Positions 23,573 through 62,489 are shown, counted from the first letter of the stretch. The stretch: DNA of 64,000 nucleotides from Gammaproteobacteria bacterium (GCA_016209015.1 JACQWY010000002.1:77622-141621), one strand, 5' to 3'. Numbers and translations are program-made. Notes: generated by a model from the sequence alone, not told the origin.

Positions 23573-25180
23573 TCACGCCCCGGATGGCGGCCCCGTCAGG
23601 AACCAGTAGCCGTCCTCGTCGCGCGCGGCGCTCGCGCCGTGCCACCACAAGTCCGGACGGCGCGACCAATAGCTCTCGAAATAGCGCGCGGGATCGTTCC
23701 ACAGACCGCGCGTCATGCCGATCGACGAACGCCGCATCACGAGCGTGCCGCGGCCCGCACCGCGGATGCTGGAGCACGCCTCGTCGACGAGGTCGACGCC
23801 GCTGCCCGGTACCGCCGCGCTGAACGCACAAGGCTTCAGGGGATGCAGCAGCGTATCGGTCAATACGCCGCCGCCGAGGTCCGGCGCGCCCGAGCAGCCG
23901 AGGATCGGCACGCGCCGCCGGCACACGTGCTCGAACGTCCAGTGCCAGGCCTCGGGCCTCCAGTCCTCCCCGGCCGCCACGACGAGCCGCAGGGCGCGCA
24001 GGTCGTAGCGTTCGATGCCGTAACCGCCGGCGCGGGTCGCGGCCCAGAGGCTCGCGGGCGAGGCGCCGAGCACCGTGACGTGGTGCTCCTGCAGCAGGCG
24101 CCACAACCGCGCCCCGTCGGGCGCGTGCGGCTCACCCTCGGCGAGGATCAGCGTCGCCCCGAGCAGCGTCGCCGCGACGAGTTGCATGGGACCGGCGAGC
24201 GAGCCCGGATCGCTCATCCACAGCACGCGATCCTCCGTCCGCCAATCGAGACACAGACCGAAATCGAGCGCCATCTTCGTCATGAAGCCGCAATGCGTAT
24301 GCACCGTGCCGCGCAGGCGTGCGCTGTTCGTCGCGGCCGGCGCGTAGTAGACGAGGGCCGGCGTGTCGGCCGGGACGACGCGCGGCATGAAGTCGCGCCG
24401 CGCGGGCTTCCGTACCCGGTGCCACCAGCGGTCACGCATCGAACGCCCGGTTCGCTCGTAGCCGAGATGGCGGACCGTGACGACGCGCTTGAGCGCCGGC
24501 GCCGCGACGAGTGCGGCGGCGAGCGTCGCGCGGAAGTCCTGCGGCACACCGCCGCTGGAGCCGCCGTCGGCCATCAGCATCGCGACGGCGCCGGAGTCGC
24601 GGAGCAGCGCGCCGAGGCGCGCGGCATCGACGTCCGCGGGCACCGGCAGGACGACCGCGCCCACCGCGAGCACGGCGAAGAAGCCGATCGCCCATTCCGG
24701 GATCGCCGGCATGTACAGCGCCACGACTTCGCCGGGCCCGATGCGCAGCGCCTCGAGTCCCGCCGCGACCCGTCCCACTTCGGCGTCGAGCTCGGCATAG
24801 GTGTAGCTGCGCCGACTGCCGTCCTCCCCTTCCCAGACGAGCGCGGGCTTGCGCCACACCGGCGTGTCGCGATGTCGCGTGAGGCAATTGAGCGCGAGAT
24901 TCGTCTCGCCGTCGAGGCACCACACGGTCCACGGCATACCGAACGCGGGCTCGCAGACCTTGGAGTAGGGCCGGGAGAAGCGCAGCCCGAAGTATCCGAT
25001 GCACGCATCCCAGAACCAGCCCGGATCCGCGTCGGCGCGGGCCACGAGCTGCGCATACGCGGCCTCCGGCGCGCCACCGATGCCGAGGGTCCGCATGAAA
25101 TGCGTCAACCGCGCCTGCCGCTTCAGATCGGCGTCGGCGTTCCAGAAGATATCGCTCGCGAATTTCGGGGATTCCAGCAT
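23573..25180 (-). CDS. AMP-dependent synthetase/ligase family protein (acetyl/acetoacetyl-CoA synthetase-like)
   Basis: Start MLESPKFASDIFW at 25180. The complement of ATG was verified, and GGAGG lies upstream. The N-terminal region resembles the ACS N-domain, and the architecture is ANL-superfamily-like. The family was assigned by overall resemblance only. Confidence 0.55.
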   Translation of the reverse strand: MLESPKFASDIFWNADADLKRQARLTHFMRTLGIGGAPEAAYAQLVARADADPGWFWDACIGYFGLRFSRPYSKVCEPAFGMPWTVWCLDGETNLALNCLTRHRDTPVWRKPALVWEGEDGSRRSYTYAELDAEVGRVAAGLEALRIGPGEVVALYMPAIPEWAIGFFAVLAVGAVVLPVPADVDAARLGALLRDSGAVAMLMADGGSSGGVPQDFRATLAAALVAAPALKRVVTVRHLGYERTGRSMRDRWWHRVRKPARRDFMPRVVPADTPALVYYAPAATNSARLRGTVHTHCGFMTKMALDFGLCLDWRTEDRVLWMSDPGSLAGPMQLVAATLLGATLILAEGEPHAPDGARLWRLLQEHHVTVLGASPASLWAATRAGGYGIERYDLRALRLVVAAGEDWRPEAWHWTFEHVCRRRVPILGCSGAPDLGGGVLTDTLLHPLKPCAFSAAVPGSGVDLVDEACSSIRGAGRGTLVMRRSSIGMTRGLWNDPARYFESYWSRRPDLWWHGASAARDEDGYWFLTGPPSGA

Positions 25181-36731: not shown

Positions 36732-36737
36732 AGGTCT

Positions 36738-36765
36738 GGAAAGGGGGTCAGGTTCGATATCCCGG
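36738..36765. repeat. Solo half-copy of the GGGAAATGGGGTCAGGTTCGAATTCGCGG repeat family (left arm only)
   Basis: GGAAAGGGGGTCAGGTTCGATATCCCGG matches about 24 of 29 positions of the left arm of the maeB-flanking repeats. No partner arm is nearby. Confidence 0.3.
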
Positions 36766-44378: not shown

Positions 44379-44440
44379 TCGAGCCTCCCCAACTTTTCCG
44401 TGTCCGGGGCCGAGCATACGCTGGCCACCTGCGGATTAGT

Positions 44441-44613
44441 AGGTTGCCATGAAAGAGCGGCGGCGCCGGCGGGAAATGGGGTCAGGTTCGAATTCGCGGG
44501 GGAGCGCCCGGGTACGCGCCATTACGTTCGCCGCGAAATCGAACCTGACCCCAATTCCCTCTACGCGTCTTTCATAATTGCGGGCGCTGCTGCACAAACT
44601 TCATGACTGTTGG
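44441..44613. repeat. MITE/REP-like palindromic repeat, copy 1 (family with 21-bp arms GGGGTCAGGTTCGAATTCGCG / CGCGAAATCGAACCTGACCCC)
   Basis: Read directly. It is about 170 bp and about 90% identical to copy 2 at 47114..47284. Terminal inverted arms flank a ~35-nt spacer. Confidence 0.6.
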
Positions 44614-47103: not shown

Positions 47104-47113
47104 TAGAGGCGTG

Positions 47114-47284
47114 GGTTGCCGTGAAAGAAGTGCGGTGCGGACGGGAAATGGGGTCAGGTTCGAATTCGCGGGCGAGCGCCCGGGTACGGGTCACCGCGTC
47201 GGCCGCGAAATCGAACCTGACCCCAATTCCCTCTACGCGTCTTTCATGATTGCGGGCGCCGCACGAACTGCATGACCGTGGGGC
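47114..47284. repeat. MITE/REP-like palindromic repeat, copy 2 (same family as 44441..44613)
   Basis: GGGAAATGGGGTCAGGTTCGAATTCGCGGGCGAGCGCCCGGGTACGG...GCCGCGAAATCGAACCTGACCCCAATTCCCTCTACGCGTCTTTCATGATTGCGGGCGC. It lies immediately downstream of the maeB stop. Confidence 0.6.
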
Positions 47285-50320: not shown

Positions 50321-51526
50321 CTAACAGGCGGAGGCCGATGCGAGGAACGCGAGCAGGAGCCGCGTCACCTCGACAGCCTGCTCCTGCTGCACCCAGTGGC
50401 CGGCGCCGTCGACGAAATGACAGCCGAGCATGCGCGTGAACGTCTGCTCGCGCATGCGCTCGATCGCGCCGGGCACCTGATAGTGACCCCAATCGTGCCG
50501 CCCGGAGATGAAGCACGCGGGCCGATCGATCGTCCGCCCTGCGAACACTTCGAGCTCCGCGCGATAGCGATCGGTGAAGTTCGCGCGATACCAGTTCAGG
50601 CCGCCCTGGAAGCCCGTGCGCGAGAACTCCGCCGCGTAGACGGCGAGCTCGGCCTCGGTCAACCATTTGCATTTCGCGATCGCCGCCGCATCCGGCATGA
50701 ACGGCGCACAATCCTCCGGCATCGTCCGATCGCGGTTCATCACGTAGTAGGTCGGCAGCTTCGCGAGCTCCACGGCGCTCCAGGACGCGAGCGGCTGCGG
50801 CTCGTTGCCCGGCCAGTCTGCGCTCTTGTAGTGGTAGTAGGCGCGGAGGAACGCGTGCACGAAGGAATTGGGGTCAGGATCCATCAGCCCCGCGCTAATG
50901 GATCCTGACCCCATTGCGCTGCCGCGCATGTCGGTCGCCGCTTCGCGCGTCGCGTAGTAGCGCCAGTAGTGCTTGCGCGGTGGTTCGAGCGCGGCGAGAG
51001 CGGCGTGGATGTCTGGTTCGGATTTCCGTTCCTCGCCGTCGGTGATCGCGGGCGCGCCGGTGAACGGCGCGCTCATCACGACGACGGCTTCGAAGACGTC
51101 CGGACGCAGCAGCGCGCACCAGCCCGCGACGAACGTGCCGAAGTCGTGCCCCATGACGCACGCGACGTTCGGGATGCCGAGCACGTGCAGCAGGCCCAGC
51201 ACGTCGCGCACGAGATTCAGGATCCGGAACGGCGCGAGATCGCCGTCGTAGTCGGCGTTCCAGCCCGTGGTGCGGCCGTAGCCGCGCTGGTCGGGCGCAA
51301 TCACGTGATAGCCCGCGGCGGCGAGCGCAGGCATGAGCTTGCGCCAGCTATAGGCGAGCTCGGGAAAGCCGTGCAGCAGGAGCAGGCAGGGGCGGCCCGG
51401 CGTTTCGAAGCCGGCGTCGAGGACGTGCAGGTCGAGGCCGTTCACGCCGGGGACGAGGCGGGAGCGAATGACGGGATCGAGCGTCGGGGTCTTCAGCGGA
51501 TCGATGGTGGCGGCCTCCGCGGGCAT
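50321..51526 (-). CDS. Alpha/beta-hydrolase (epoxide-hydrolase-like) carrying an in-frame 54-bp palindromic-repeat insertion
   Basis: 401 aa. HGFPELAYSWR, nucleophile elbow GHDFG, and the distal His region are typical of epoxide hydrolases. The segment MGSGSISAGLMDPDPNS is encoded by the repeat at 50865..50918. Confidence 0.75.
   Translation of the reverse strand: MPAEAATIDPLKTPTLDPVIRSRLVPGVNGLDLHVLDAGFETPGRPCLLLLHGFPELAYSWRKLMPALAAAGYHVIAPDQRGYGRTTGWNADYDGDLAPFRILNLVRDVLGLLHVLGIPNVACVMGHDFGTFVAGWCALLRPDVFEAVVVMSAPFTGAPAITDGEERKSEPDIHAALAALEPPRKHYWRYYATREAATDMRGSAMGSGSISAGLMDPDPNSFVHAFLRAYYHYKSADWPGNEPQPLASWSAVELAKLPTYYVMNRDRTMPEDCAPFMPDAAAIAKCKWLTEAELAVYAAEFSRTGFQGGLNWYRANFTDRYRAELEVFAGRTIDRPACFISGRHDWGHYQVPGAIERMREQTFTRMLGCHFVDGAGHWVQQEQAVEVTRLLLAFLASASAC
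50865..50918. repeat. Short variant of the GGGGTCAGG palindromic repeat family embedded in-frame within the hydrolase coding sequence
   Basis: GGAATTGGGGTCAGGATCCAT-N13-ATGGATCCTGACCCCATT. The terminal ~16 bp of each arm match the maeB-flanking repeats. Length is 54 bp, or 18 codons. Confidence 0.45.
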
Positions 51527-51776
51527 GTCGTCCGGTCATTGTGCCGCGCTTGGCGGGAAGCAGCATCCGAGAGAGAGATGAATTTGGGCGATGGTCCCGG
51601 GTTCGACAGGGCTGCCGCGGGCCAGCGACCGGGTCCCGGTCCCGGCCTCCGCCGGGAGGGTCCCTGCCCCGGGACGACGGGCCGCGATCGATGCGCCTCC
51701 TGCGCCGGCGCATCCGATAAACTCGCGGCGGTCACACGCGCGGTGCAGGATCGCGCCGGCACCCCGAGGAGCATTC

Positions 51777-53438
51777 ATGTCCGAAGAGTTCCCTTCCGCC
51801 CTCTCCCGCCGCGAATTCCTGAAACGCGCCGGCGCCTCGGGCGTCGCGGTCGCCGCGGGCACGTTCGGCCGTGCCGCGGCCGGCGCGGGCGGCGGCACGC
51901 CCGAGCAGGTGCATCTCACCTGGGGTGCGGATCCGTCGAGCGAAGTCGTCGTCTCCTGGTGCACGGTCGAAGCGGCCGTGAGTCCGCGCGTGCACTACGG
52001 GCCGACGCCCGCGCTCGGCAGGATCGTGCCTGCCGAAACGCGGCGCTACGTCGATGGTCTGAGCGGCGAAACGGTGATCTGCCATCACGCGCGGCTCAGC
52101 GGTCTGGCGCCCGCTTCGACCGTGCATTACGCCGTGACGGCGGACAACGACGCGAAGCAGGATCGGCCCTTCGCCGCCGGGTTCGTCACCGCGCCGCGCG
52201 AGCGCCGCGGCTTCCGCTTCACGAGCTACGGCGATCTCGCGACGCCGAACACGCAGTGGACGATTTCATCCCCGCAGGCCCGGCATGCGATCGTCGCGGT
52301 CGAGCGTTTCGCGCCGCTGTTCCATCTGCTGAACGGCGATCTCTGCTACGCGAACCTGAATCCGGCGGCGCAGCCCGCGGTGTGGCGCGACTTCGGCGAC
52401 AACGTCGAGCCGTCCGCCGCGCGCCGGCCGTGGATGCCCTGTCCCGGCAATCACGAGATCGAGTTCAACAACGGCGCGCAGGGCTACGGCGGCTATCTCG
52501 CGCGTTACGAGCTGCCCGCGAACGGCACGCGCTTTCCCGGGCGCTGGTATGCGTTCCGCGTCGGCGGCGTGCTGTTCGTCTCGCTCGATGCGAACGACGT
52601 CGTCCACCAGGACTGCGGGCCGCTCGTGAACGGTCCGCGCCCGCTCGTGCCCGCCCTCAATGCAGGCCAGCCGCCGATCGCCCCCGGCACCGCGCTCTAC
52701 GTCCGCGGCTAAAGCGGCGGCGAGCAGACGCGCTGGCTCGAGCAGACGCTGCGCGCCGCGCGCGCCGACGCGGGTCTCGACTGGATCGTCGTGCAGATGC
52801 ACGAGGACGCGATGAGCTCCTCCGATCCCGGCAACGGCTCGGACAAGGGCATCCGCGAAGCCTGGCTGCCGCTCTTCGACACATACGGCGTCGACCTCGT
52901 GCTGTGCGGCCACGATCACGACTACGAGCGCACGTTCCCGGTCCGCGGCCGTCATCACGACACGGGGCGCGACGTGGCAACGGGCGAGCCCGTCGACACG
53001 CTGCAGCCGATCCCGCTCGTCAGGGAGGACCCGGCGGACGGCGTATACGACTCACCGCAGGGCGCGATCCATCTCGTGCTCGGCGGCGGCGGTACGGGCG
53101 CACCGCTCGGCGTCTACGGCCGCGATCCGCAATCCGGCGCGCCGCTCGCGAAAGTCTTCACGAAGCGCAACGCGCCGCGGCCCGGTGCGAAGCCCGGCAC
53201 GTTCATGCGTGCCAAAGCGGATGCGGTGGAAGCGGCAATCTGGTCGGCGCGCCGCGACACGGAGAGCGCTTACGGTATCGCGGTCTTCGACGTGCATTAC
53301 GACGAGACGCCGGGCATGACGTCGATCACCCTGAGCTACTGGCACACAGTCGGCGCCGTGCCGACGGGCGATTACGAGCTCTTCGAGAAGATCGTGTTGC
53401 GGAAGAAGCGCAAGGACGCTCTTCGCAACTCGTCGTAG
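51777..53438 (+). pseudogene. Purple acid phosphatase/metallophosphoesterase with Tat signal, interrupted by a single in-frame TAA (52710-52712). Possible pseudogene or sequence error.
   Basis: ATG at 51777 is preceded by CCGAGGAG. Tat motif: SRREFLKRAG. PAP motifs: GDLCYAN, GNHE, GHDHDYER. ORFs 51591..52712 and 52791..53438 are in the same frame. The sequence reads continuously across the TAA: YVRG*SGGEQTRWLEQTL. Confidence 0.5.
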
Positions 53439-53489
53439 GTCCGTAGCCGCGGGCGTAATCGGACGTTCGATTCGCCTTCGGCCCGGCGC

Positions 53490-54623
53490 TCAATTCCCCG
53501 GCTGCAAGGTGACTTCGACATCACCCTTCTTGCCGTGCCGGAGCAGCGAGAGCGTGACGTTGTCGCCGACCTTGAAGTCGTCGAGGCGCGCGAAGAGCTT
53601 GCTCACGCTGTCGACGGGTTTGCCGTTGACCGCGACGATCACGTCGCCGATCGCGACTTCGCCCTGGGCCGACATCGCCGCGCCCTCGAGGCCGGCTTTC
53701 GCGGCCGGCGAGTCCGCCTTCACGCGGAGGATCACCACGCCCTGCACGCCGAGCATGTTCGTCAACTGCTGGTTCAACTCCTCGTCAAGCTCCACACCGA
53801 GGCCGGGGCTGATGTACTTGCCGTGGCGGATGAGCTGCGGCACGACGCGGTTCACGACGTCGACCGGTACGGCGAAGCCGATGCCGGCGCTCGCGCCGCT
53901 CGGGCTGTAGATCGCGGTGTTGATGCCGATGAGCCGGCCCGCGGAATCGAGCAGCGGGCCGCCGGAATTGCCGGGATTGATCGCCGCGTCGGTCTGGATC
54001 AGATGTTCGATCGTCGCGCCGTTCTCCTCGCCGAGCGAGCGATCGAGCGCGGAGACGATGCCGGTCGTGAGCGTCCAGTCGAGGCCGAAGGGATTGCCGA
54101 TTGCGAAGACCTTCTGGCCGACCTTGAGCTTCGCGCTCTCGCCGATCGGCACGGGCGGCGGACGCTTGAAGCCGACGCCGATCTTCAGCACCGCGATGTC
54201 GTGCGCCTCGCTCGCCCCGACGAGTCCCGCCTTGTAATCACGGCCGTCGGCGAGCTTGACGGTCGCTTCGCTCGCGCCTTCGAGCACGTGGTAGTTCGTC
54301 ACCACGTGGCCCGCACCGTCCCAGATGAAGCCCGAACCCGTGCCGCGCGGCACGGAGTAGACGTTGCGCGTCCAGAAATCGCGCACTTTCGCGCGCGTCG
54401 TGATGTAGACGACGCCGCCGCGCGCGTTCTCGAAGAGATCGATCGTCGCCTTTTCGTCGGCCGCGAGATCGCCGCGTGCGGTGACCACGCGCGGTGCGGC
54501 ATCCTCGCGCGAGAGCGTGTATTCGTAGCGCGTGGTGATGCGCCACAACACGAGCACGGCAGCGATCGCCGCGGCGATCCACAGGATCTTCGCGTAGTCG
54601 CGTTCAGGTTCTTCGTAGCGCAA
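53490..54623 (-). CDS. HtrA/DegS-like S1C serine protease with one PDZ domain and an N-terminal membrane anchor
   Basis: Catalytic triad context: TNYHVL (His), DIAVLKI (Asp), GNSGGPL (Ser). PDZ: GVQGVVILRVKADSPAAKAGL. The probable start is TTG at 54623 (or CTG at 54626), 8 nt after GAGGGAAG and in frame with ORF 53490..55250. Confidence 0.7.
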   Translation of the reverse strand: MRYEEPERDYAKILWIAAAIAAVLVLWRITTRYEYTLSREDAAPRVVTARGDLAADEKATIDLFENARGGVVYITTRAKVRDFWTRNVYSVPRGTGSGFIWDGAGHVVTNYHVLEGASEATVKLADGRDYKAGLVGASEAHDIAVLKIGVGFKRPPPVPIGESAKLKVGQKVFAIGNPFGLDWTLTTGIVSALDRSLGEENGATIEHLIQTDAAINPGNSGGPLLDSAGRLIGINTAIYSPSGASAGIGFAVPVDVVNRVVPQLIRHGKYISPGLGVELDEELNQQLTNMLGVQGVVILRVKADSPAAKAGLEGAAMSAQGEVAIGDVIVAVNGKPVDSVSKLFARLDDFKVGDNVTLSLLRHGKKGDVEVTLQPGN

Positions 54624-54762
54624 CAGAGCTTCCCTCGTCCGTTCGCGATCGCGCGTTCGTTCCGCCGTCCGGCGCCTACGCTGCAAGTGCGGGCGGTCGG
54701 GCCGGGAATCAAGGGGCCGGCCGTCGGCGCGATGGATCCGCGTCCGACACGCCCGGCGCGGA

Positions 54763-54790
54763 TTGAAATCGTCACCACCGGTCCACATAT
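54763..54790 (+). promoter_or_regulatory. Sigma32 (RpoH)-type heat-shock promoter candidate upstream of the first hsp20
   Basis: TTGAAA-N14-CCACATAT compared with the sigma32 consensus CTTGAAA-N13-15-CCCCATnT. It lies about 55 nt upstream of the ATG at 54846. Confidence 0.4.
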
Positions 54791-54845
54791 ATCCGCCGGA
54801 CACATGACGAACGGTGTCCACACGAATCCGAAAGGACGCAGCCAG

Positions 54846-55304
54846 ATGGAGGACGAAACCATGATATATCGATCCCTGTTCCCCGGCGACGTGTTCGCCG
54901 AAATCGATCGCCTGCGCCGTGACATGCAGGAGAGCTTCGATTATTCGCCCAGCATCCGCGGCATCGGCCGCGGCGGTTTTCCCGCCATGAACGTCGGCGG
55001 CTCGCCGCAATCGATCGAGATCTATGCGTTCATGCCGGGCGTCGACCCGGCCCAGGTCGAGGTCCAGATCGAGAACGGCGTGCTGACGATTTCCGGTGAG
55101 CGCAAATCCGATCTGCCGACGGACAAGACCCAGCGCTCCGACGTGCACATCGCCGAACGATTCACGGGCCGCTTCAGGCGCGTCGTGACGCTGACGGAGG
55201 ACGCCGATCCGGACGCCGTGAACGCGGTGTATCGCGACGGCGTGCTCCACATCAGCATCCAGCGCCGCGCCGCGGCCCAGCCGCGCCGCATCAGCATCCA
55301 GTGA
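54846..55304 (+). CDS. Hsp20/alpha-crystallin small heat-shock protein (copy 1)
   Basis: ATG at 54846 is preceded by AAAGGA. The alpha-crystallin domain (IEIYAFMPGVDPAQVEVQIENGVLTISGER...FTGRFRRVVTL...DAVNAVYRDGVLHI) shows the A..G.L motif. Confidence 0.8.
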   Translation: MEDETMIYRSLFPGDVFAEIDRLRRDMQESFDYSPSIRGIGRGGFPAMNVGGSPQSIEIYAFMPGVDPAQVEVQIENGVLTISGERKSDLPTDKTQRSDVHIAERFTGRFRRVVTLTEDADPDAVNAVYRDGVLHISIQRRAAAQPRRISIQ

Positions 55305-55321
55305 GTCGAGGAGGTGACACC

Positions 55322-55702
55322 ATGAACGAGACGAAGCCCAGCACGAACGAGCAGCGCAACACCCGCCCCGAGGCGGCGATCCTGCCGCCCGTCGACGTCA
55401 TCGAAGATAAATCGGGCATTACGCTGATCGCCGATCTGCCCGGTGTGGCGAAAGAGAACATGCACGTGCGGCTCGAAGCGGACACGCTGACGATCGAGGG
55501 TGAAGTGACGCTCAACCTCCCGCAGGGAACGGAGGCGACGCACGCCGAGGTCAACCTGCCGCGTTACCGCCGCGCGTTCACGCTCTCCAAGGAGCTCGAC
55601 AGCGAGCAGGTGCGCGCCGAGTTCACGCACGGCGTGCTCAAGCTCCACATCCCGAAGGCCGCGCACGCCCAGCCGCGCAAGGTGGATGTCCACGTCGGAT
55701 GA
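55322..55702 (+). CDS. Hsp20/alpha-crystallin small heat-shock protein (copy 2)
   Basis: ATG (MNETKP) is preceded by GAGGAGG. ITLIADLPGVAKENMHVRLEADTLTIEGE...AEFTHGVLKLHIPK. Confidence 0.8.
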   Translation: MNETKPSTNEQRNTRPEAAILPPVDVIEDKSGITLIADLPGVAKENMHVRLEADTLTIEGEVTLNLPQGTEATHAEVNLPRYRRAFTLSKELDSEQVRAEFTHGVLKLHIPKAAHAQPRKVDVHVG

Positions 55703-55710
55703 GAAGGGGT

Positions 55711-55836
55711 CTGACGCGTGTGGGTAACTCGCAGCAAGCGAGTTATCCACGCGGGTCATACCCCGGCTTCCCGAGCGCCGAACGAAGGGCGCGCCGGCCG
55801 CCGAACACCGCGATCGATGCGCCTCCTTCGTCGGCA
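55711..55836 (+). repeat. Copy 1 of a ~100-bp conserved intergenic element that starts immediately after a stop codon and includes a CCTCCT block
   Basis: Conserved blocks are shared with 61353..61453 in reverse orientation: CTGACGCGTGTGG; GCGGGTCATACCCCGGCTTCC-GAGCGCCGAACGAAGGG; CGATCGATGCGCCTCCTTCGTCGGCA. This copy also carries an extra palindrome, GTGGGTAACTCGC-AGCAA-GCGAGTTATCCAC. Confidence 0.5.
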
Positions 55837-55890
55837 TCCTATAGGCCAAAACTCCGGACCGCCGCTGCGGTCGATGCAGGAGGTCATGCC

Positions 55891-56391
55891 ATGACATTCG
55901 AGAATCTGAAAGAGAATCTCAGCTCGCTGTGGGATTCGGTGGCCGAGGGCTGGCAGCACCTCGCGCAGTCCGCGAACAGTGCGCTGACGCGGTTCAAGCC
56001 CGGCGCCGAAATGCCGGACAAGCGCGAAGTGGACGATACGTGGTATCTGCCCACCCGCGGGTGGGCGATGCTCGGCGGCGATGTCTTCGAGGATACCGCC
56101 CGCATCGTGGTCCGCCTCGAAGTGCCGGGTCTGCAGAAGCAGGATCTCAGGCTCGAGATCGAAGACAACGCGCTCGTCGTCAGTGGTGAGAAACGCTTCG
56201 AGCGCGAGAGCACGCAGGGGCGCTGGCGCGTGATGCAATGCGCGTACGGCAGCTTCCGCCGCGTCGTGCCGCTGCCGGCGAGCGTCGCGCCCGAACAGGC
56301 GAAAGCGAGTTACCGGGAAGGCGTGTTGCGCGTGGAGATACCGAAGCTCCGGCAGGCCGCGCCCGAGGGCCGGACGATACCCATCGACTGA
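55891..56391 (+). CDS. Hsp20/alpha-crystallin small heat-shock protein (copy 3)
   Basis: ATG at 55891 is preceded by GCAGGAGG. IVVRLEVPGLQKQDLRLEIEDNALVVSGEKR...GSFRRVVPLP...ASYREGVLRVEIPK. Confidence 0.8.
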   Translation: MTFENLKENLSSLWDSVAEGWQHLAQSANSALTRFKPGAEMPDKREVDDTWYLPTRGWAMLGGDVFEDTARIVVRLEVPGLQKQDLRLEIEDNALVVSGEKRFERESTQGRWRVMQCAYGSFRRVVPLPASVAPEQAKASYREGVLRVEIPKLRQAAPEGRTIPID

Positions 56392-56518
56392 CTTTCGGCC
56401 GCCCCGGAACAGAGCCGGAGTCCGAATGCGTCGGACTCCGGCTCCGACCCGGCAGCGTGTGCCGTCTCCGTCGCTGCGCGATGCCGGGCTTCGGATGACG
56501 CCCGAGGAGCCGCGGCGA

Positions 56519-57358
56519 TCAGCTCCAGTCGTCGCCGCCGATGTCGCCGCCGCCGAGATCGCCGCCGTCGACGTAGCCCGAGTTGTCGCCCCAGGACGAG
56601 GAGTCGTTCACACCGAAATCCTGATCCTCCGGGACGCCGCGGTTCGCCTGCGTGAAGCCCGCCGGCCCGAAGCCCGCGCCGGGATCCGCGGTGCGGTTGC
56701 CGTCCATCACGCGATGCACGAGCGCCTCGCCCGCGGCGATACCCGCGCCCACGGCGAGCCCGCTCGCGAGGCTCGAGCCGAGACCCGGCCCCGAGCCGCC
56801 CATCGGCGCGGGACCGCCGCCGTACGGGCCTTGTGCATACGGGCCACCCTGGGCGCCGCCGTAGCCTGCCCCATAGGCTGTCGGAGGGTTCGCGGCGTTG
56901 CGGCGCGCGGACCTCGCCCGCACGACGAACATGACGAGCAGGAGGCCGCCGACCCCGAGCACGATCGGCATCAGCGAATGGCCGCCGCGCATGGCGCCGC
57001 CGTCCGCCACGGGCAGCGCCGCGGCGGTGCCGTTGATCATCTCGCGCAGATGGGCGACCGCGCTCGGCTTCGCGAACGTGAGGCCCGGGGCGAGCTTCTC
57101 CGCGGTGGCGAGCGCCTCGCGCGCCTCGTCGCGACGGCCTTCGCGCGCGAGCACCTCGGCATGCACGAAGTGTGCTTTCGCGCTGTCCGGATGCGCTTTC
57201 AACACTTCGCCCATCATCGTGTCCGCTTTACCGAGCTTGCCGGCCTCTACGGCTTCGAAGACCTCGTGCAGCGTGGGCTCCGCGGCGTAACCCGCGGTCG
57301 CGACGCCGCCGGCGAGCGCGAGGGCGAAGACCGTATTCCTGGCAATCTGTCTCAACAT
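56519..57358 (-). CDS. Hypothetical membrane-anchored protein: signal peptide, TPR-like helical domain, one TM helix and a Gly/Asp-rich disordered tail
   Basis: ORF track. MLRQIARNTVFALALAGGVATAGYA, then a helical region (AHFVHAEVLAREGRRDEAREALATAEKLAP), a TM helix (IVLGVGGLLLVMFVV), and a C-terminal GGxG/DG repeat region. Confidence 0.45.
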   Translation of the reverse strand: MLRQIARNTVFALALAGGVATAGYAAEPTLHEVFEAVEAGKLGKADTMMGEVLKAHPDSAKAHFVHAEVLAREGRRDEAREALATAEKLAPGLTFAKPSAVAHLREMINGTAAALPVADGGAMRGGHSLMPIVLGVGGLLLVMFVVRARSARRNAANPPTAYGAGYGGAQGGPYAQGPYGGGPAPMGGSGPGLGSSLASGLAVGAGIAAGEALVHRVMDGNRTADPGAGFGPAGFTQANRGVPEDQDFGVNDSSSWGDNSGYVDGGDLGGGDIGGDDWS

Positions 57359-57591
57359 GGCTGACTCCTGAGGTTCGTACGCCGGGATCGTTTCGAGTGC
57401 CGGCGGTGGCGGGGGTTCCGTCGCTGTGCAGTGTTTCCGGAGCTGCTCGAGCGAATCTGAAATCCGGGGCCGTCACGCGTCGGCCGGCAGACTACCACGC
57501 GCCGGCATATCCATATGACGGATCCGCAGGCGGCTTCACCGCGCATCGCTGATACTATGCCGCGCCTTCGAACCCGGACCCTCGTTGCCCC

Positions 57592-58386
57592 GTGATCACG
57601 ACGACTCTCATGAATCCCGCCGCGGGCTTTCTCGTCGGCACGCTCGTGGGCTTCACCGGCGTGGGCGGCGGCGCGCTGATGACGCCGATCCTCGTGCTGC
57701 TGTTCGGCGTCGTCCCGCACACCGCGGTGGGCACGGATCTGCTCATGGCGACGATCACGAAGACGGTCGGCAGCTCCGTGCACTGGTCGCGGGGCGCGGT
57801 CGACTGGCAGGTCGTGCGCAGGCTCTGGCTCGGCAGCCTGCCGGCCGCGGCGGCGACGCTCGTCTTCCTCCATCACGCCGAAACGGACAGCGCGCGCGTC
57901 TCGGCCATCATCCTGCCCATGCTCGGCGTCGCCCTGCTGCTCACGAGCCTCGGCGTGCTGTTCAAGCCCGCGCTGCACCGGCTCGGTAAACATCTCCGCT
58001 CGCATTTCACGGCGCGCTTCAAGCGCGCGCAGCCCGCGCTCACGGTGCTCGCAGGGGCGATCCTCGGCGTGCTCGTGACCCTGACCTCGGTCGGCGCCGG
58101 CGCGCTCGGGACGGTGATGCTCGTCTATCTCTATCCGTTCCGCATGCACGCGACGAAGCTCGTGGGGACGGACATCGCGCACGCCGTGCCGCTCACGCTC
58201 GTCGCGGGACTCGGCCATCTCGCGCTCGGCAACGTCGATCTCGCGCTGCTCGCGGGCCTGCTCGCGGGCTCGATACCGGGCATCGTGCTCGGCGCGCTGC
58301 TGAGCCACCGTGTCGATCCGGGCTGGGTGACGAAGGGAATCGCCGTCACGCTCGCGCTGATCGCGGCGAAGCTGCTGCTGAAGTGA
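57592..58386 (+). CDS. TSUP-family (TauE/SafE) sulfite/anion exporter
   Basis: 264 aa. Duplicated 4-TM halves with GxGGG-type motifs (FTGVGGGALMTPILV; TSVGAGALGTVMLV). Confidence 0.7.
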   Translation: MITTTLMNPAAGFLVGTLVGFTGVGGGALMTPILVLLFGVVPHTAVGTDLLMATITKTVGSSVHWSRGAVDWQVVRRLWLGSLPAAAATLVFLHHAETDSARVSAIILPMLGVALLLTSLGVLFKPALHRLGKHLRSHFTARFKRAQPALTVLAGAILGVLVTLTSVGAGALGTVMLVYLYPFRMHATKLVGTDIAHAVPLTLVAGLGHLALGNVDLALLAGLLAGSIPGIVLGALLSHRVDPGWVTKGIAVTLALIAAKLLLK

Positions 58387-58428
58387 GAGAGAACGCGCGG
58401 ACGCCGGACGGCGCCCGCGCGCAGGCCA

Positions 58429-59208
58429 TTACGGCTGGACGGGCGGGAGGTTCGCGCTCAGCGCGGAGACGTTGTCCGCACCGGCGATCGCGCACACCGG
58501 ATGCGAGAAGTCGTTCTGCAGGCTCGGCACCGCGACCTGACCCTGGTAATTGATGTTGTCGGGACGCGTGGCGTCCGCGCCGACGCCGCCCGGCACGTAG
58601 TCGAGCTTCAGGTTGTGACGCGTGCGCCAGGCGATGTTGTGGTCCGCGCAGGACGTGTCGCCCGAGACGCCGACGGCGCCGAGCAGCACCTTGCCCTTGC
58701 CGTAGAGCGCGAGGCCGCCGCCGAAGACGTTCACGCCGCCGATCTTCTCGCCGACCATGGGATCGTTCACCTGGCCATAGTTCTGCGACGGGCCCTTGTA
58801 GGCCGCGGCCGTGTTGACCGGGTTGCTCTCCTGCAGACCGAAGAGTGAGCCGCCGGGCTGCACCGCCGCCCACAGGTTCGCCGTCGACAGCGCGAGCCCC
58901 GGCAGGCTGAACGCGTTCGCGGTATTCGCCTTCTGGGCCGAAATCACGCGGCTGCCGGGCCATTCCGCGCCACGGTCCCCGCCGGTGAACGCGACCGCGC
59001 ACACGACCCCGTCACGGTTCACGACCGTGCCCCACATATCGAGATTGAAACCGCCGTTCGAGGCGTTGCGCGCGTCGATCAGTGCCTGCTCGAGCTGGGC
59101 CTGCGAGGGCAGACCCTTGCACGAGTTGTCGCTCGCGGCGTAGACGGCGCCGGACGCGGCCACGAGGCCGCCCATCCACACTGCCATGACGTGTTTGTTG
59201 TTCAGCAT
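58429..59208 (-). CDS. Secreted GlcG/HbpS-like (DUF336, heme-degrading-type) domain protein
   Basis: Start MLNNKHVMAVWMGGLVAASGAVYAA at 59208. The complement of ATG was verified, and AGGAGA lies upstream. GAVGVSGDT matches the family's GAIGVSGG loop. Size ~259 aa. Confidence 0.5.
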   Translation of the reverse strand: MLNNKHVMAVWMGGLVAASGAVYAASDNSCKGLPSQAQLEQALIDARNASNGGFNLDMWGTVVNRDGVVCAVAFTGGDRGAEWPGSRVISAQKANTANAFSLPGLALSTANLWAAVQPGGSLFGLQESNPVNTAAAYKGPSQNYGQVNDPMVGEKIGGVNVFGGGLALYGKGKVLLGAVGVSGDTSCADHNIAWRTRHNLKLDYVPGGVGADATRPDNINYQGQVAVPSLQNDFSHPVCAIAGADNVSALSANLPPVQP

Positions 59209-59614
59209 GGTTTGCTCTCCTGTTCGAGTTGGAATTCTTTTCTGGAACCCGATTGCCGAGCGAGTGCGGGCGCGTCGCGTCCTGCCGCCGTGTTCCGGTG
59301 TCCTGGAGATCGATGCTGGAAAGCTCGCATTGCCGCACCCACGAAGCAGGCGCACGGTAAACCCGTCCGCCGGGGAAGGGAAGCGCGCAGAAGCGACAGT
59401 GCTTCACGCGTCGTGACATTCGGCACCGTAGGGTCCAATCGGGTCGTGCGCGGGACGCCGTGTAAGCACTGCGTGTCGCGTCAGAACAAATTACACGCGC
59501 GCCGCCGCGTAATGCCGCTGCAGACCGGCGCTTTCCGCTGGCATGTGTATTGCCTCGTGCCATGCGACGTCCGCGCGGCGGACGCTTCCCTTCCATCATG
59601 CAGAGGTGAACACC

Positions 59615-59689
59615 ATGAACGGAATCATCTATCTCGTCGGGCTGGTCGTGGTGATCCTCGCGATCCTCTCGTTCCTCGGACTGCGCTGA
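59615..59689 (+). CDS. Unannotated 24-aa hydrophobic micro-protein (MNGIIYLVGLVVVILAILSFLGLR), DUF1328-like N-terminal pattern
   Basis: ATG at about 59615 is preceded by GAGGTG. The TGA stop is 2 nt before the ATG of the following membrane-protein gene. It is absent from the ORF track because it is shorter than 60 aa. Confidence 0.3.
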   Translation: MNGIIYLVGLVVVILAILSFLGLR

Positions 59690-59691
59690 TC

Positions 59692-60606
59692 ATGAGCAGC
59701 CAGACCCTGCCTCCGCGCAACGACGCGGTAATCACGCCACGTGGCGACGCGCCGCACGTCGATCTGCCCGCGATCATCGCGGGCGCATTGTTGAGCGCCG
59801 CGGTCGCCCTGTTGTTCACGACGTTCGGCTCCGGCATCGGTCTCTCGATGCTCTCGCCCTATCGCGGCGAAGGCACGTCGGGGACGATGTTCCTCGTCGC
59901 GTTCGGGCTGTGGACGATCTGGGTCGCGGTGTCGAGTGCGATGGCCGGCGGTTATCTCGCCGGCCGGCTGCGCCGGCGCACCGCGGACGCGACGCCCCAC
60001 GAAGTCGAGATCCGCGACGGCTTCCACGGTCTCGCGGTGTGGGCGCTCGCAGCGCTGATCGGCGCCTGGCTCGCCGCGGGCGCGACGGCAGGCGTCGCGA
60101 AAATGGGTGCGGGCGCCGCCCGTGGCGCGATGCACGCGGGCGCACAGGCCGCAGGACATCACGCCGGCGGTATGATGCGCGGCATGATGAGCGACATGCA
60201 GGGGATGACCGGGCAGGACGATTTCGGCGCGACGGCCGATCGTCTCGTGCGCGCGCCGCAGGACGGCTCGCCGCGCGAAGTCGCGCGCATCCTCTCGCAC
60301 AGTGCGGCAGCAGGCCAGCTCAGCGCGGAGGATCGCCAGTATCTCGTCGACGTCGTCGCCGCGCGCACGAACCGCACGCCCGAAGAGGCCGGTCAGATCG
60401 TCGATCGTGCCTTCACCGACGCCCAGCAGGCACTCGCCCACGCCCGGGATGCGGCCGAGAAGGCGCGCAAGGCGGGAATACTGTTCGCGTTCCTGACCGC
60501 CGCCTCGCTGCTCGCGGCCGGTGTCGGCGCCTGGTGGGCGGCGACGCGCGGCGGCCTGCATCGCGATCAGAACACGGACTTCAGCCGGCTCACGCGCTGG
60601 GCCTGA
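59692..60606 (+). CDS. Hypothetical inner-membrane protein with Gly/Ala/Met-rich central segment
   Basis: ATG at 59692 is in frame within ORF 59191..60606. Multiple TM helices. The stretch MHAGAQAAGHHAGGMMRGMMSDMQGM suggests possible metal binding. I recognise no family. Confidence 0.45.
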   Translation: MSSQTLPPRNDAVITPRGDAPHVDLPAIIAGALLSAAVALLFTTFGSGIGLSMLSPYRGEGTSGTMFLVAFGLWTIWVAVSSAMAGGYLAGRLRRRTADATPHEVEIRDGFHGLAVWALAALIGAWLAAGATAGVAKMGAGAARGAMHAGAQAAGHHAGGMMRGMMSDMQGMTGQDDFGATADRLVRAPQDGSPREVARILSHSAAAGQLSAEDRQYLVDVVAARTNRTPEEAGQIVDRAFTDAQQALAHARDAAEKARKAGILFAFLTAASLLAAGVGAWWAATRGGLHRDQNTDFSRLTRWA

Positions 60607-60609
60607 AGC

Positions 60610-61047
60610 GTGGCGAACCAGGGCACGCTCGTCGACGGCACGCACAGCGCGGCCGTCGGCTACGTGCTCTGGATCTTCGGCTTCATGGGCGCGCACCGTT
60701 TCTACTTCGGACGGCCGGTGAGCGGGACGATCTATTTCTTCACGCTCGGACTCTTCCTCATCGGCTGGATCGCGGATCTGTTCCTGATGCCGGGCCTCGA
60801 GGCCGCCGCGGATCAACGCTACGCCGCCGGCCGCTACAGCTTCACCCTGGCCTGGGTGCTGCTCATCTTCCTCGGGCTCTTCGGCGCCCACCGCTTCTAT
60901 CTCGGCAAATGGCTCACCGGCCTGCTCTGGCTCTGCACCGGCGGTCTCTTCCTCGCCGGGTGGCTCTATGATCTGTGGACGCTGAACGGGCAGGTCGATG
61001 CCCTGAATCGCGAGCACGGACGGACGCTGCGATATTCGAGTCTGTGA
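60610..61047 (+). CDS. TM2-domain membrane protein
   Basis: GTG start. A duplicated G.HRFY.G motif (GAHRFYFGRP; GAHRFYLGKW) is characteristic of TM2/NINE domains. Confidence 0.6.
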   Translation: MANQGTLVDGTHSAAVGYVLWIFGFMGAHRFYFGRPVSGTIYFFTLGLFLIGWIADLFLMPGLEAAADQRYAAGRYSFTLAWVLLIFLGLFGAHRFYLGKWLTGLLWLCTGGLFLAGWLYDLWTLNGQVDALNREHGRTLRYSSL

Positions 61048-61063
61048 TCTCTCCGATCAGCCG

Positions 61064-61306
61064 CAGGCGTAATCGGACGTTTCTTCGCGGGTTGCACGGC
61101 ATCGATCCCCTTACTCGCGGCCCGGGAACCGAAGAATTCATCCGATTACGCCGGCGCTAAGGAAGCTCTGAACAAGTTCAGAGCTTCCGGCGGCACAGGG
61201 ATGTGCCGCCGTGAACAGTGGCGTAAGCCATTGTTCACGTAAGGTTGGCAAGAACCACGCTTCTTGCCGACCGTGCTCTGAAAAGTCCAGGATGTCCAGG
61301 ATGGAC
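61064..61306. ncRNA. Candidate structured RNA / REP-array: six consecutive perfect or near-perfect hairpins filling a convergent intergenic region
   Basis: GGCGTAATCGGA...TCCGATTACGCC (61064-61140). GGAAGCTCTGAAC-AA-GTTCAGAGCTTCC (61161-61188). GGCGGCACA-GGGA-TGTGCCGCC (61189-61210). GTGAACAGTGGC-GTAA-GCCATTGTTCAC, with a GNRA loop and a G-U pair (61211-61238). GTTGGCAAGAA-CCACGC-TTCTTGCCGAC (61244-61271). GTCCAGGATGTCCAGGATGGAC (61285-61306). Local GC is reduced. Coding status of the two overlapping track ORFs is rejected. Confidence 0.3.
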
Positions 61307-61352
61307 TTATTGAGAGCTTCCCTAACGGTACCTACGAAGCGCTCATGGGACG

Positions 61353-61453
61353 TGCCGACGCAGGAGGCGCACCGATCGCGGGGCGACGTTCCGGAGATCC
61401 CTTCGTTCGGCGCTCTGGAAGCCGGGGTATGACCCCGGCGCCACACGCGTCAG
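61353..61453 (-). repeat. Copy 2 (reverse orientation) of the ~100-bp conserved element; contains hairpin GCCGGGGTCATACCCCGGC
   Basis: It shares three conserved blocks with 55711..55836. As in copy 1, it begins with the stop codon of the upstream minus-strand gene inside CTGACGCGTGTGG. Confidence 0.5.
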
Positions 61454-61884
61454 CCCCCGGCACCCGCACACGGCGGCACGACCGCGATCCCCACGGTGGC
61501 GAAGATCAACGCGAGCATGAAGCCCGCGCTCGCCATCATGCCGCACACCGCGAGGAAGCGCGTGCGGCCTTCGCCGGCATCGAGCAGGTGATGGGCGGAG
61601 CCGGCGGCTTCTTCGCGCGTCGCGCGCCAGCCGAGCCAGGCGACGACGAAGGCGGCGACGGTGACCGCGAGCGCCATGACGTCGACCGCGGCGAGCGCGC
61701 TGTGGAGCGTCCGGGCGTCGAGCGCGTAGCGCGCGCCGTTGCAGGTGACGCCGGTCACGGCATAGCTCGCGGTGAGCTGGAACGCCCAGGCGAGCGGTGC
61801 TGCGAAGAGACCGAAAGCGAGCGCGCCGCGGCCGTAACGTTCGCGATGCGGCGCAGGATGGGAGGAACCGAGCAGCGTGTTCAT
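61450..61884 (-). CDS. Small membrane protein (144 aa) downstream of coxIII; possible cytochrome oxidase accessory or subunit IV-like protein
   Basis: Start MNTLLGSS at 61884. The complement of ATG was verified. It lies 5 nt after the coxIII stop. Three predicted TM helices. I recognise no family. Confidence 0.4.
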   Translation of the reverse strand: MNTLLGSSHPAPHRERYGRGALAFGLFAAPLAWAFQLTASYAVTGVTCNGARYALDARTLHSALAAVDVMALAVTVAAFVVAWLGWRATREEAAGSAHHLLDAGEGRTRFLAVCGMMASAGFMLALIFATVGIAVVPPCAGAGG

Positions 61885-61889
61885 GGGTG

Positions 61890-62489
61890 TCACCCGAGGC
61901 GTGGGAGGAGATAGAACGTGGTGAAGACGGCGAGCCACACGGCGTCGACGAAATGCCAGTAGACGGCACTCACCGCGACGGGGACGGGCCGCGCGGGCCC
62001 GGCGCGGCCGCTCGCGAGCCACCAGGCGACGGCGGCGAGCATCACCCAGCCCGCGACGACGTGCGCCATGTGGAAGCCCGTGATCGTGAAGTACAGCGAG
62101 CCGTAGACGTGCGAGGCCGGCGTGAAGGATTTCTTGTGCCACTCGAGGAGCTGCACGGCGATGAAGACGGCACCGAACGCGAGCGTCGCGAGGAAGCCGC
62201 GCCGGCAGCCGCGCAGATCGCCGCGGCGCGACAGCCGGCGCTCGGCCCACCACACCGTCACGCTGCTCGCGAGCAGCACGAGAGTGTTCGGCAGCGCGAG
62301 CTTCAACTCGGGCGCACCGACCGGCGGCCACGGCGGCGGCGCCTGCGCCGCGATGTAGCCATAGGAGAACAGCAGGTAGGCGAACAGTGCGGCCTCGGTC
62401 GCGATCGTCGCGATCATGCCCCACCAGCCGGACGTGCGGTGGGGCTTGCGCTCCGCGCCGGCGAGGATTTCGGCGGGAATCGCGCTCAT
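61890..62489 (-). CDS. ctaE: Cytochrome c oxidase subunit III
   Basis: Start MSAIPAEIL from residue arithmetic. GSLYFTITGFHMAHVVAG, YWHFVDAVW and WLAVF are Cox3 signatures. The start overlaps the coxI stop (ATGA). Confidence 0.8.
   Translation of the reverse strand: MSAIPAEILAGAERKPHRTSGWWGMIATIATEAALFAYLLFSYGYIAAQAPPPWPPVGAPELKLALPNTLVLLASSVTVWWAERRLSRRGDLRGCRRGFLATLAFGAVFIAVQLLEWHKKSFTPASHVYGSLYFTITGFHMAHVVAGWVMLAAVAWWLASGRAGPARPVPVAVSAVYWHFVDAVWLAVFTTFYLLPRLG

Follow-up and report, generated by a model that had tools for sequence, protein, structure and literature searches.

Two distant intergenic gaps in a 64,000-nucleotide (nt) stretch of a Gammaproteobacteria bacterium genome (GCA_016209015.1, JACQWY010000002.1:77622-141621; the whole stretch is hereafter the window) share an ordered, non-coding element of about 100 bp, one copy lying between the second and third genes of an hsp20 operon (hsp20-2 and hsp20-3) and the other at the 3' end of a small membrane open reading frame (ORF) downstream of COX3. 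Is such an element a device for controlling stress and respiratory genes, or is it a repeat that happens to have settled beside them? The original prediction, made from the DNA alone, leaned towards terminator or 3' untranslated region (3'-UTR) modules and speculated on thermometer-like or translational-coupling control of hsp20-3. Our results indicate that the element is a real repeat, an ordinary hairpin-forming composite of the repetitive extragenic palindromic (REP) type, and no dedicated heat-shock control element. With a probability that we put at roughly 0.8, each element is one copy of a composite palindromic repeat specific to this lineage, ~110-140 nt long, whose 3' module is a REP of the GTAG kind.

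Extent and copies of the shared element

The ordered blocks claimed for the two sites are indeed found at both, on the plus strand in copy 1 and on the minus strand in copy 2, and the assertion that they exceed chance is borne out by the 19-mer GGGTCATACCCCGGCTTCC, which was hit twice in 0/100 shuffles and has exact matches only at 55753 (+) and 61435 (-). The adjoining 17-mer GAGCGCCGAACGAAGGG likewise has exact matches only at 55773 (+) and 61415 (-). Similarity between the two copies begins at GGGG(T/G)CTGACGCGTGTGG (55706 and 61458) and stops at CCTAT or CCCAT, which closes the last block, block C (55842 and 61345). Composite copy 1 (55706-55842, +) starts 3 nt after the hsp20-2 stop codon, consists of a palindrome that we term P1, block B and a REP unit that we term REP-C, and scores 125 bits against a hidden Markov model (HMM) of five copies; composite copy 2 (61345-61458, -), in which the inner part of P1 is deleted, scores 105 bits. 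Copy 1 has ~29 additional nt, which complete a 59-nt palindrome. Both copies had been said to start with or next to the TGA of the upstream gene. That is correct for copy 2, where the TGA of the element (61452-61450) is the stop codon of the gene, but not for copy 1, where the hsp20-2 stop codon (55700-55702) is separate and the homologous TGA (55712-55714) lies 10 nt past it.

The count of two loci, both of them real, was too low. A diverged third copy in the window, at 51603-51718 (+), had been overlooked and two more lie outside it; the search for further copies, which the original prediction had proposed, yielded these three additional local copies as well as REP units in metagenome contigs. 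Copy 3 first surfaced in a repeat search, as a recurrence of block C at 51669-51718; its blocks A and B are diverged (66.7 bits against the five-copy HMM), and it sits in a divergent gap, ~60 nt upstream of the ATG (51777) of a purple-acid-phosphatase gene. Copies 4 and 5 were supplied by a contig of the metagenome-assembled genome (MAG) GCA_016218315.1 (L007/L035; L numbers denote the compared loci), which is 99% identical to the window. Both lie just past the window end, copy 4 (L007 19542-19585, -) comprising block C only and standing between cox2 and a pyrroloquinoline quinone (PQQ) dehydrogenase gene, and copy 5 (L035 28-200, -) having the A/B/C architecture. Copies 3 and 4 are both in gaps between divergent genes, and the window and the adjoining MAG contig sequence together hold five copies in ~22 kb.

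The REP unit and the upstream modules

Block C is a 36-nt REP-type palindrome, CGCGATCGATGCGCC-TCCTTCGTC-GGCACATC-CTAC/T, the hairpin of which has an 8-bp stem (GATGCGCC / GGCRCATC) and a 9-nt loop and is preceded on the other strand by GTAG or ATAG. On this tag strand the unit reads GTAG/ATAG - GATGYGCC - GACGMAGGA - GGCRCATC - GATCGCG, that is, tag, stem, loop, stem and a conserved 7-nt tail. REP-C of copy 1 (55809-55842, +; 39.8 bits, E 6e-11) has the tail CGCGATC, the stem GATGCGCC / GGCA--TC with a 2-nt deletion, the loop TCCTTCGTC and the tag CTAT (reverse complement ATAG). The unit is intact in copy 3 (51683-51718, +; 38.2 bits), with the perfect stem GATGCGCC/GGCGCATC, and decayed in copy 2 (61345-61380, -; 30 bits), where two mismatches and a single G-U wobble disturb the stem GGTGCGCC / GGCACGTC and CCAT stands in the tag position.

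A metagenome scan for block C with the pattern CGCGATCGNTGCGCCTCCTNCG returned 19 loci, ~13 of which extend past the search pattern to the consensus CGCGATCGATGCGCCTCCTTCGTCGGCACATCCTAC (or ...CTAT). The contigs carrying the unit are unrelated, range in GC content from 48 to 67% and in one case hold two units in 2 kb; all of the metagenome units lie between genes, as a rule 4-90 nt beyond a stop codon, and inverted doublets with their tags outward occur in L010, L011/L020/L027, L019 and L028. When 16 copies were aligned, among them the left arms of doublets and one syntenic copy unconstrained by the search pattern, the stem was paired in 89% of cells, compared to 26-52% with a slid partner, and compensatory double changes were found at three stem pairs (C-G to U-A, C-G to G-C and C-G to U-A). 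In this small and partly related sample, such changes support, and do not prove, that the stem has been maintained. The position of the tag is conserved, its sequence being CTAC (reverse complement GTAG) in L010, L011, L019, L022, L028 and copy 5, CTAT (reverse complement ATAG) in copies 1 and 4, L031, L014, L023 and L025, and CCAT and CGAT in copies 2 and 3, respectively. Elsewhere the searches gave little: in a plasmid collection the locus was unmatched in near mode and the REP doublet in distant mode, and the matches to a single REP unit were rejected as chance, being partial and inside genes; a scan of viral contigs produced one REP-C match and no P1 match and is uninformative; and a text search of the literature with the REP sequence matched only unrelated primers.

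The modules upstream of REP-C are also palindromic in character. P1 (55706-55764, +) is a 59-nt near-perfect palindrome, GGGGTCTGACGCGTGTGGGTAACTCGC-AGCAA-GCGAGTTATCCACGCGGGTCATACCCC, with a predicted fold of -46.4 kcal/mol (z = -10.5); its 5' arm is block A of the original prediction, and its 3' arm extends into the beginning of block B (GGGTCATACCCCGGCTTCCCGAGCGCCGAACGAAGGG; 55753-55789, +), a block conserved between copies 1, 2 and 5 but only weakly so in copy 3. RNA covering the whole of copy 1 (55703-55850) is predicted to form two hairpins, with a folding energy of -87.6 kcal/mol (z = -7.7). In copy 2 of the window the inner 29 nt of P1 are gone, and what stays as a P1/B remnant is a residual 8-bp hairpin, GCCGGGGT-CAT-ACCCCGGC (61421-61439, -), in other words the GC hairpin GCCGGGGTCATACCCCGGC to which attention had already been drawn and which is present. 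The orthologue of copy 2 in L031, a 96% identical contig, keeps the inner hairpin of P1 but has 24 nt of block B deleted, and in L031 the inner stem of P1 has changed from TAACTCGC/GCGAGTTA to TGACTCGC/GCGAGTCA, a compensatory A-T to G-C replacement. From the variant losses in copy 2 of the window and in L031 we conclude that the unit originally consisted of P1 + B + REP-C and that it is decaying by the loss of whole modules. The repeat is multi-copy, extragenic and mostly located just 3' of stop codons, and the copies differ by insertions and deletions of whole hairpins.

Two further candidates concerning block B were set aside. It bears a weak likeness to an inverted REP-C (local alignment p of 0.025-0.06), and its interpretation as the inverted partner of REP-C, as in a hairpin-forming REP doublet (REPIN), is unproven; B and C no longer pair in copy 5, and in L031 the pairing is gone with the deleted half of block B. 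Six genome-collection matches to the 19-mer of block B, in unrelated phyla, are chance matches with no extension past the 19-20-mer.

Origin, likeness to known repeats and regulatory readings

Comparison with relatives allows us to gain insight into how the element came to lie in these gaps. L029, whose hsp20-3 is 81% identical, matches the window in gene order from the malic-enzyme gene up to and including hsp20-1/2/3, and neither does its 98-nt hsp20-2/hsp20-3 spacer show any similarity to the element nor is REP-C found upstream of its phosphatase gene; in L033, whose small ORF is 86% identical, no A/B/C sequence follows the small ORF, and copies of a second REP family, REP2, are present there instead. 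The absence of the element from the orthologous gaps of these relatives shows that it arrived by insertion and is not a conserved regulator. At copy 2, the 144-amino-acid ORF upstream takes its last two Gly codons and its stop codon from the 5' end of the element, GGGGGCTGA. Homologues of this small ORF that are free of the element end in ...PPC, ...PPCA or ...PTCAA and are 3-5 residues shorter, and the two small ORFs carrying the element end in ...PPCAGAGG. Judged by these ends, copy 2 overwrote the end of the ORF and supplied its stop codon. Assembly contigs L008, L009, L036 and L035 break off within a REP-C copy or no more than 30 nt from one, which would be the expected effect of a multi-copy repeat on assembly.

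REPs are defined by a stem-loop, a GTAG tag and an extragenic location near ORF 3' ends (Di Nocera et al. 2013, PMC3733652; Corneloup et al. 2021, PMC8266576); their typical place is immediately 3' of stop codons, and they can function as RNA hairpins (PMC3733652), their termini can supply stop codons, and several REP families coexist in a genome (PMC3733652; PMC8266576). The 36-nt unit described here resembles the GTAG REP superfamily and the bacterial interspersed mosaic elements (BIMEs), as exemplified by the Escherichia coli REP y/z, the Pseudomonas REPs and the Stenotrophomonas SMAGs (PMC3733652, PMC8266576), in having a stem-loop (6-13 bp in the known class) with an unpaired GTAG-type tetranucleotide at one end, in being extragenic near ORF 3' ends and sometimes supplying the stop codon, in being found both singly and as inverted dimers whose tags point outward, and in the presence of co-resident families (here REP-C and REP2) and of clustering with flanking DNA pieces. 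It differs from them in its long 9-nt loop, its conserved 7-nt tail GATCGCG and its local ATAG tag, and in that no REP-associated tyrosine transposase (RAYT) was seen. REPINs are hairpin-forming REP doublets, reportedly described by Bertels and Rainey in 2011 from Pseudomonas fluorescens SBW25; the inverted doublets of L010, L011, L019 and L028, which can be folded into one long hairpin, are like them, as is the presence or absence of the element among close relatives, whereas the window copies are larger three-module composites and not clear doublets. A further likeness is to miniature inverted-repeat transposable elements (MITEs) and to ERIC, RPE and NEMIS/Correia, examples of composite palindromic intergenic repeats, in so far as the element is ~110-140 nt long, non-coding, structured and intergenic and may overlap ORF ends. 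Here, in contrast to MITEs, there are no whole-unit terminal inverted repeats and no target-site duplication (the composite ends, GGGGKCTGACG... and ...CATCCTAT, are not mutually inverted, and no flanking duplication was found), and the 3' end coincides with the REP tag. The composite is a previously uncatalogued member of the REP/BIME-like class of palindromic repeats, with ATAG as its local tag.

Several observations weigh against the identification as a GTAG-kind REP composite. The first base of the tag is A, not G, in 4/5 local copies (ATAG, ATGG, ATCG), and any change in GTAG abolishes binding and cleavage by the E. coli TnpA(REP) (PMC8266576). The HUH...YxxNP motif of RAYTs was absent from six-frame translations of the window and the compared loci in a crude motif scan. 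Blocks A and B were met with in this lineage only, and the composite as a whole is no described REP. Positions 1-51000 of the window contain no copy, and the clustering of the local copies could also reflect local duplication. As most local tags deviate from GTAG, these copies may be relics, and most of them (tags ATAG, ATGG, ATCG) are probably immobile now. By analogy with known REPs, the unit would have spread via recognition and cleavage of single-strand hairpins by a RAYT/TnpA(REP) encoded elsewhere in the genome, and/or via recombination between copies. When transcribed, the stable hairpins, especially P1 after hsp20-2, would act as passive 3' barriers that shield the upstream mRNA from 3' exonucleases and may reduce read-through into the next gene. 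The role of the element is most likely the generic one proposed for REPs, selfish or structural DNA with passive 3' barriers, and no gene-specific regulation is implied.

The position of copy 1 nevertheless raises the idea of a cis-regulatory RNA, in which CCUCCU pairs with the Shine-Dalgarno (SD) sequence of hsp20-3 in a read-through transcript and releases it on heating. The ingredients named in the original prediction are in place, CCTCCT (55822-55827) lying upstream of and being complementary to AGGAGG (55878-55883) on the same strand of an hsp20 operon, and a pyrimidine stretch complementary to the SD upstream of hsp20 is also what the ROSE and fourU thermometers present. However, when the whole gap between hsp20-2 and hsp20-3 was folded, as had been proposed, the summed CCUCCU-SD pairing probability was predicted to be 0.0 at 25, 30, 37, 42 and 45 °C, and CCUCCU was always predicted to pair with block B inside the element. 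CCTCCT lies at the REP stem/loop junction, is a generic component of every REP-C copy beside unrelated genes and becomes GTTCCT in doublet left arms through covariation of the stem; the orthologous gap of L029, which has the same operon, is free of the element, and no ROSE or other relevant Rfam match was obtained at the gathering or the E<=10 threshold. Thermometer-like control or translational coupling of hsp20-3 is thus extremely improbable and the speculation is not supported. A shared promoter or transcription-factor module driving hsp20-3, the phosphatase gene and the cox operon would make sense of copies 1, 3 and 4, which lie ~50-175 nt upstream of start codons in sense orientation, but it leaves unexplained copy 2, between convergent genes, and copy 5, which follows the hairpin and T-run of its upstream gene on a contig that ends 27 nt beyond, no downstream gene being seen at either. 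There is no sigma-70-like match at the copies, L029 is without the element upstream of the corresponding genes, and the same 36-mer stands after stop codons in unrelated organisms, all of which makes such a module very unlikely. Block C was also judged by eye as a sigma-54 or sigma-32 promoter, and both readings were rejected as spacing and hexamers misfit across the copies, and a repeat derived from a tRNA or att site was ruled out, there being no tRNA nearby.

The strong GC hairpins directly after stop codons could also be paralogous intrinsic (Rho-independent) terminators behind two genes. What survives of the earlier terminator or 3'-UTR proposal is a repeated 3'-end hairpin module in a generic sense, but not an intrinsic terminator: a scan of 51400-62000 finds no hairpin with a U-tract at the copies, P1 being followed by GGCTTCCCGAG and REP-C by AGGCCAAAAC, copies 3 and 4 precede genes, in divergent gaps, and conservation between copies runs ~80 nt beyond the hairpin. 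We consider intrinsic termination, too, very unlikely. Small-RNA (sRNA) genes or 3'-UTR sRNAs, displaying an anti-SD CCUCCU seed in a loop and acting in trans on many mRNAs, are suggested by the orientation of the local copies, 5/5 of which would place CCUCCU, not AGGAGG, in the transcript of the neighbour gene, and C-rich loop motifs are known to serve as sRNA seeds. This orientation bias is not upheld in the metagenome, where L013, L023 and L025 hold copies in antisense orientation relative to their nearest gene; nothing resembling a promoter or a terminator was found at the copies, Rfam gave no match, the copies decay freely by stem mismatches, a 2-nt deletion and a 24-nt deletion, and an sRNA function is highly improbable. 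Unlikely, in our estimate, is also a reading that accepts the REP and goes further, namely that the three-module composite, with the REP as its core, constitutes a new mobile unit, non-autonomous and particular to this lineage, which would be more than selfish DNA in that it would reshape gene ends (extra C-terminal residues, a new stop) and equip each neighbour gene's sense transcript with a CCUCCU anti-SD presented on a hairpin, acting as a weak generic brake on downstream translation.

Neighbouring genes and other repeats

The genes flanking copy 1 are hsp20 copy 2 (55322-55702, +; PF00011, E 7.6e-17) and hsp20 copy 3 (55891-56391, +; PF00011, E 9.4e-21; SD at 55878-55883). The SD and start codon of the latter (55876-55900) lie in a small local palindrome, GGTCATGCCATGAC, and a 2-codon mini-ORF, ATGCCATGA, overlaps the start codon; the SD core is predicted to be paired at 25-45 °C, with an unpaired probability of 0.0-0.06 and little change with temperature. 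The 144-amino-acid membrane ORF whose 3' end is overlapped by copy 2 (61450-61884, -) has no Pfam match, and the COX3 identity of its neighbour was confirmed alongside both HSP20-family genes. The purple-acid-phosphatase gene downstream of copy 3 (51777-53438) contains an in-frame TAA at 52710-52712, which is TAC (Tyr) in the 99%-identical MAG contig and reflects either a nonsense mutation of the window genome or an error in its sequencing. Differences from L007 are concentrated in 58000-60999, with 16-44 per kb compared to none in 53-56 kb; this divergent patch contains an HbpS-like gene and unknown membrane genes, and its divergence suggests that it is recombined or fast-evolving. At 23703-23794 (-), ARAGORN calls a tRNA-Ala(CGC) of 92 nt, unusually long for a bacterial tRNA, and the call may be false or the tRNA insertion-bearing.

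Other repeats occur in and around the same gaps. REP2 is a classic-looking REP family with a clear GTAG tag in relatives, and it occupies the same intergenic gaps as REP-C; one copy, GTCCGATTACGCCTGCGGCTGATCGGA (61052-61078, -; family consensus GTAGGTCCGATTAGCCGCAGGCGTAATCGGAC), lies in the gap of copy 2, and further copies are found at 61140-61157 (+), 53435-53464 (-) and 17209-17221 (-) as well as in L031, L033, L013 and L025. Adjoining copy 2 is a MITE-like hairpin element of 178 bp (61146-61323, -), which has a lower GC content (55%), a multi-hairpin fold of -89.8 kcal/mol and inverted ends, TAGGGAAGCTCT...AGAGCTTCCTTA. It is missing from the 99%-identical contigs L007 and L036, has homologues of 87-94% identity in L029 (3793-3946 and 11563-11684), and probably represents a MITE with polymorphic occurrence among members of the population; its presence beside copy 2 indicates that this gap collects repeats. 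Another repeat family, at 44439-44590, 47111-47262 and 36733-36765, includes a 152-nt direct repeat (88% identical) that holds an internal inverted repeat, GGGAAATGGGGTCAGGTTCGAATTCGCGG, and a similar-looking inverted repeat, AAATTTCGGGGACACGA, occurs at about 330-440 of L035.

The chief relevance is to annotation: recognition as selfish or structural DNA of the REP type accounts for a conspicuous non-coding repeat beside stress and respiratory genes, and guards against its over-reading as a heat-shock riboregulator. Copy 2 provides a clear example of a REP-type element overwriting the stop codon of an ORF. For those who catalogue REPs the value is modest: a REP unit common to contigs of very different GC content, and the documentation of a local, ATAG-tagged subfamily that is fused to other palindromes.

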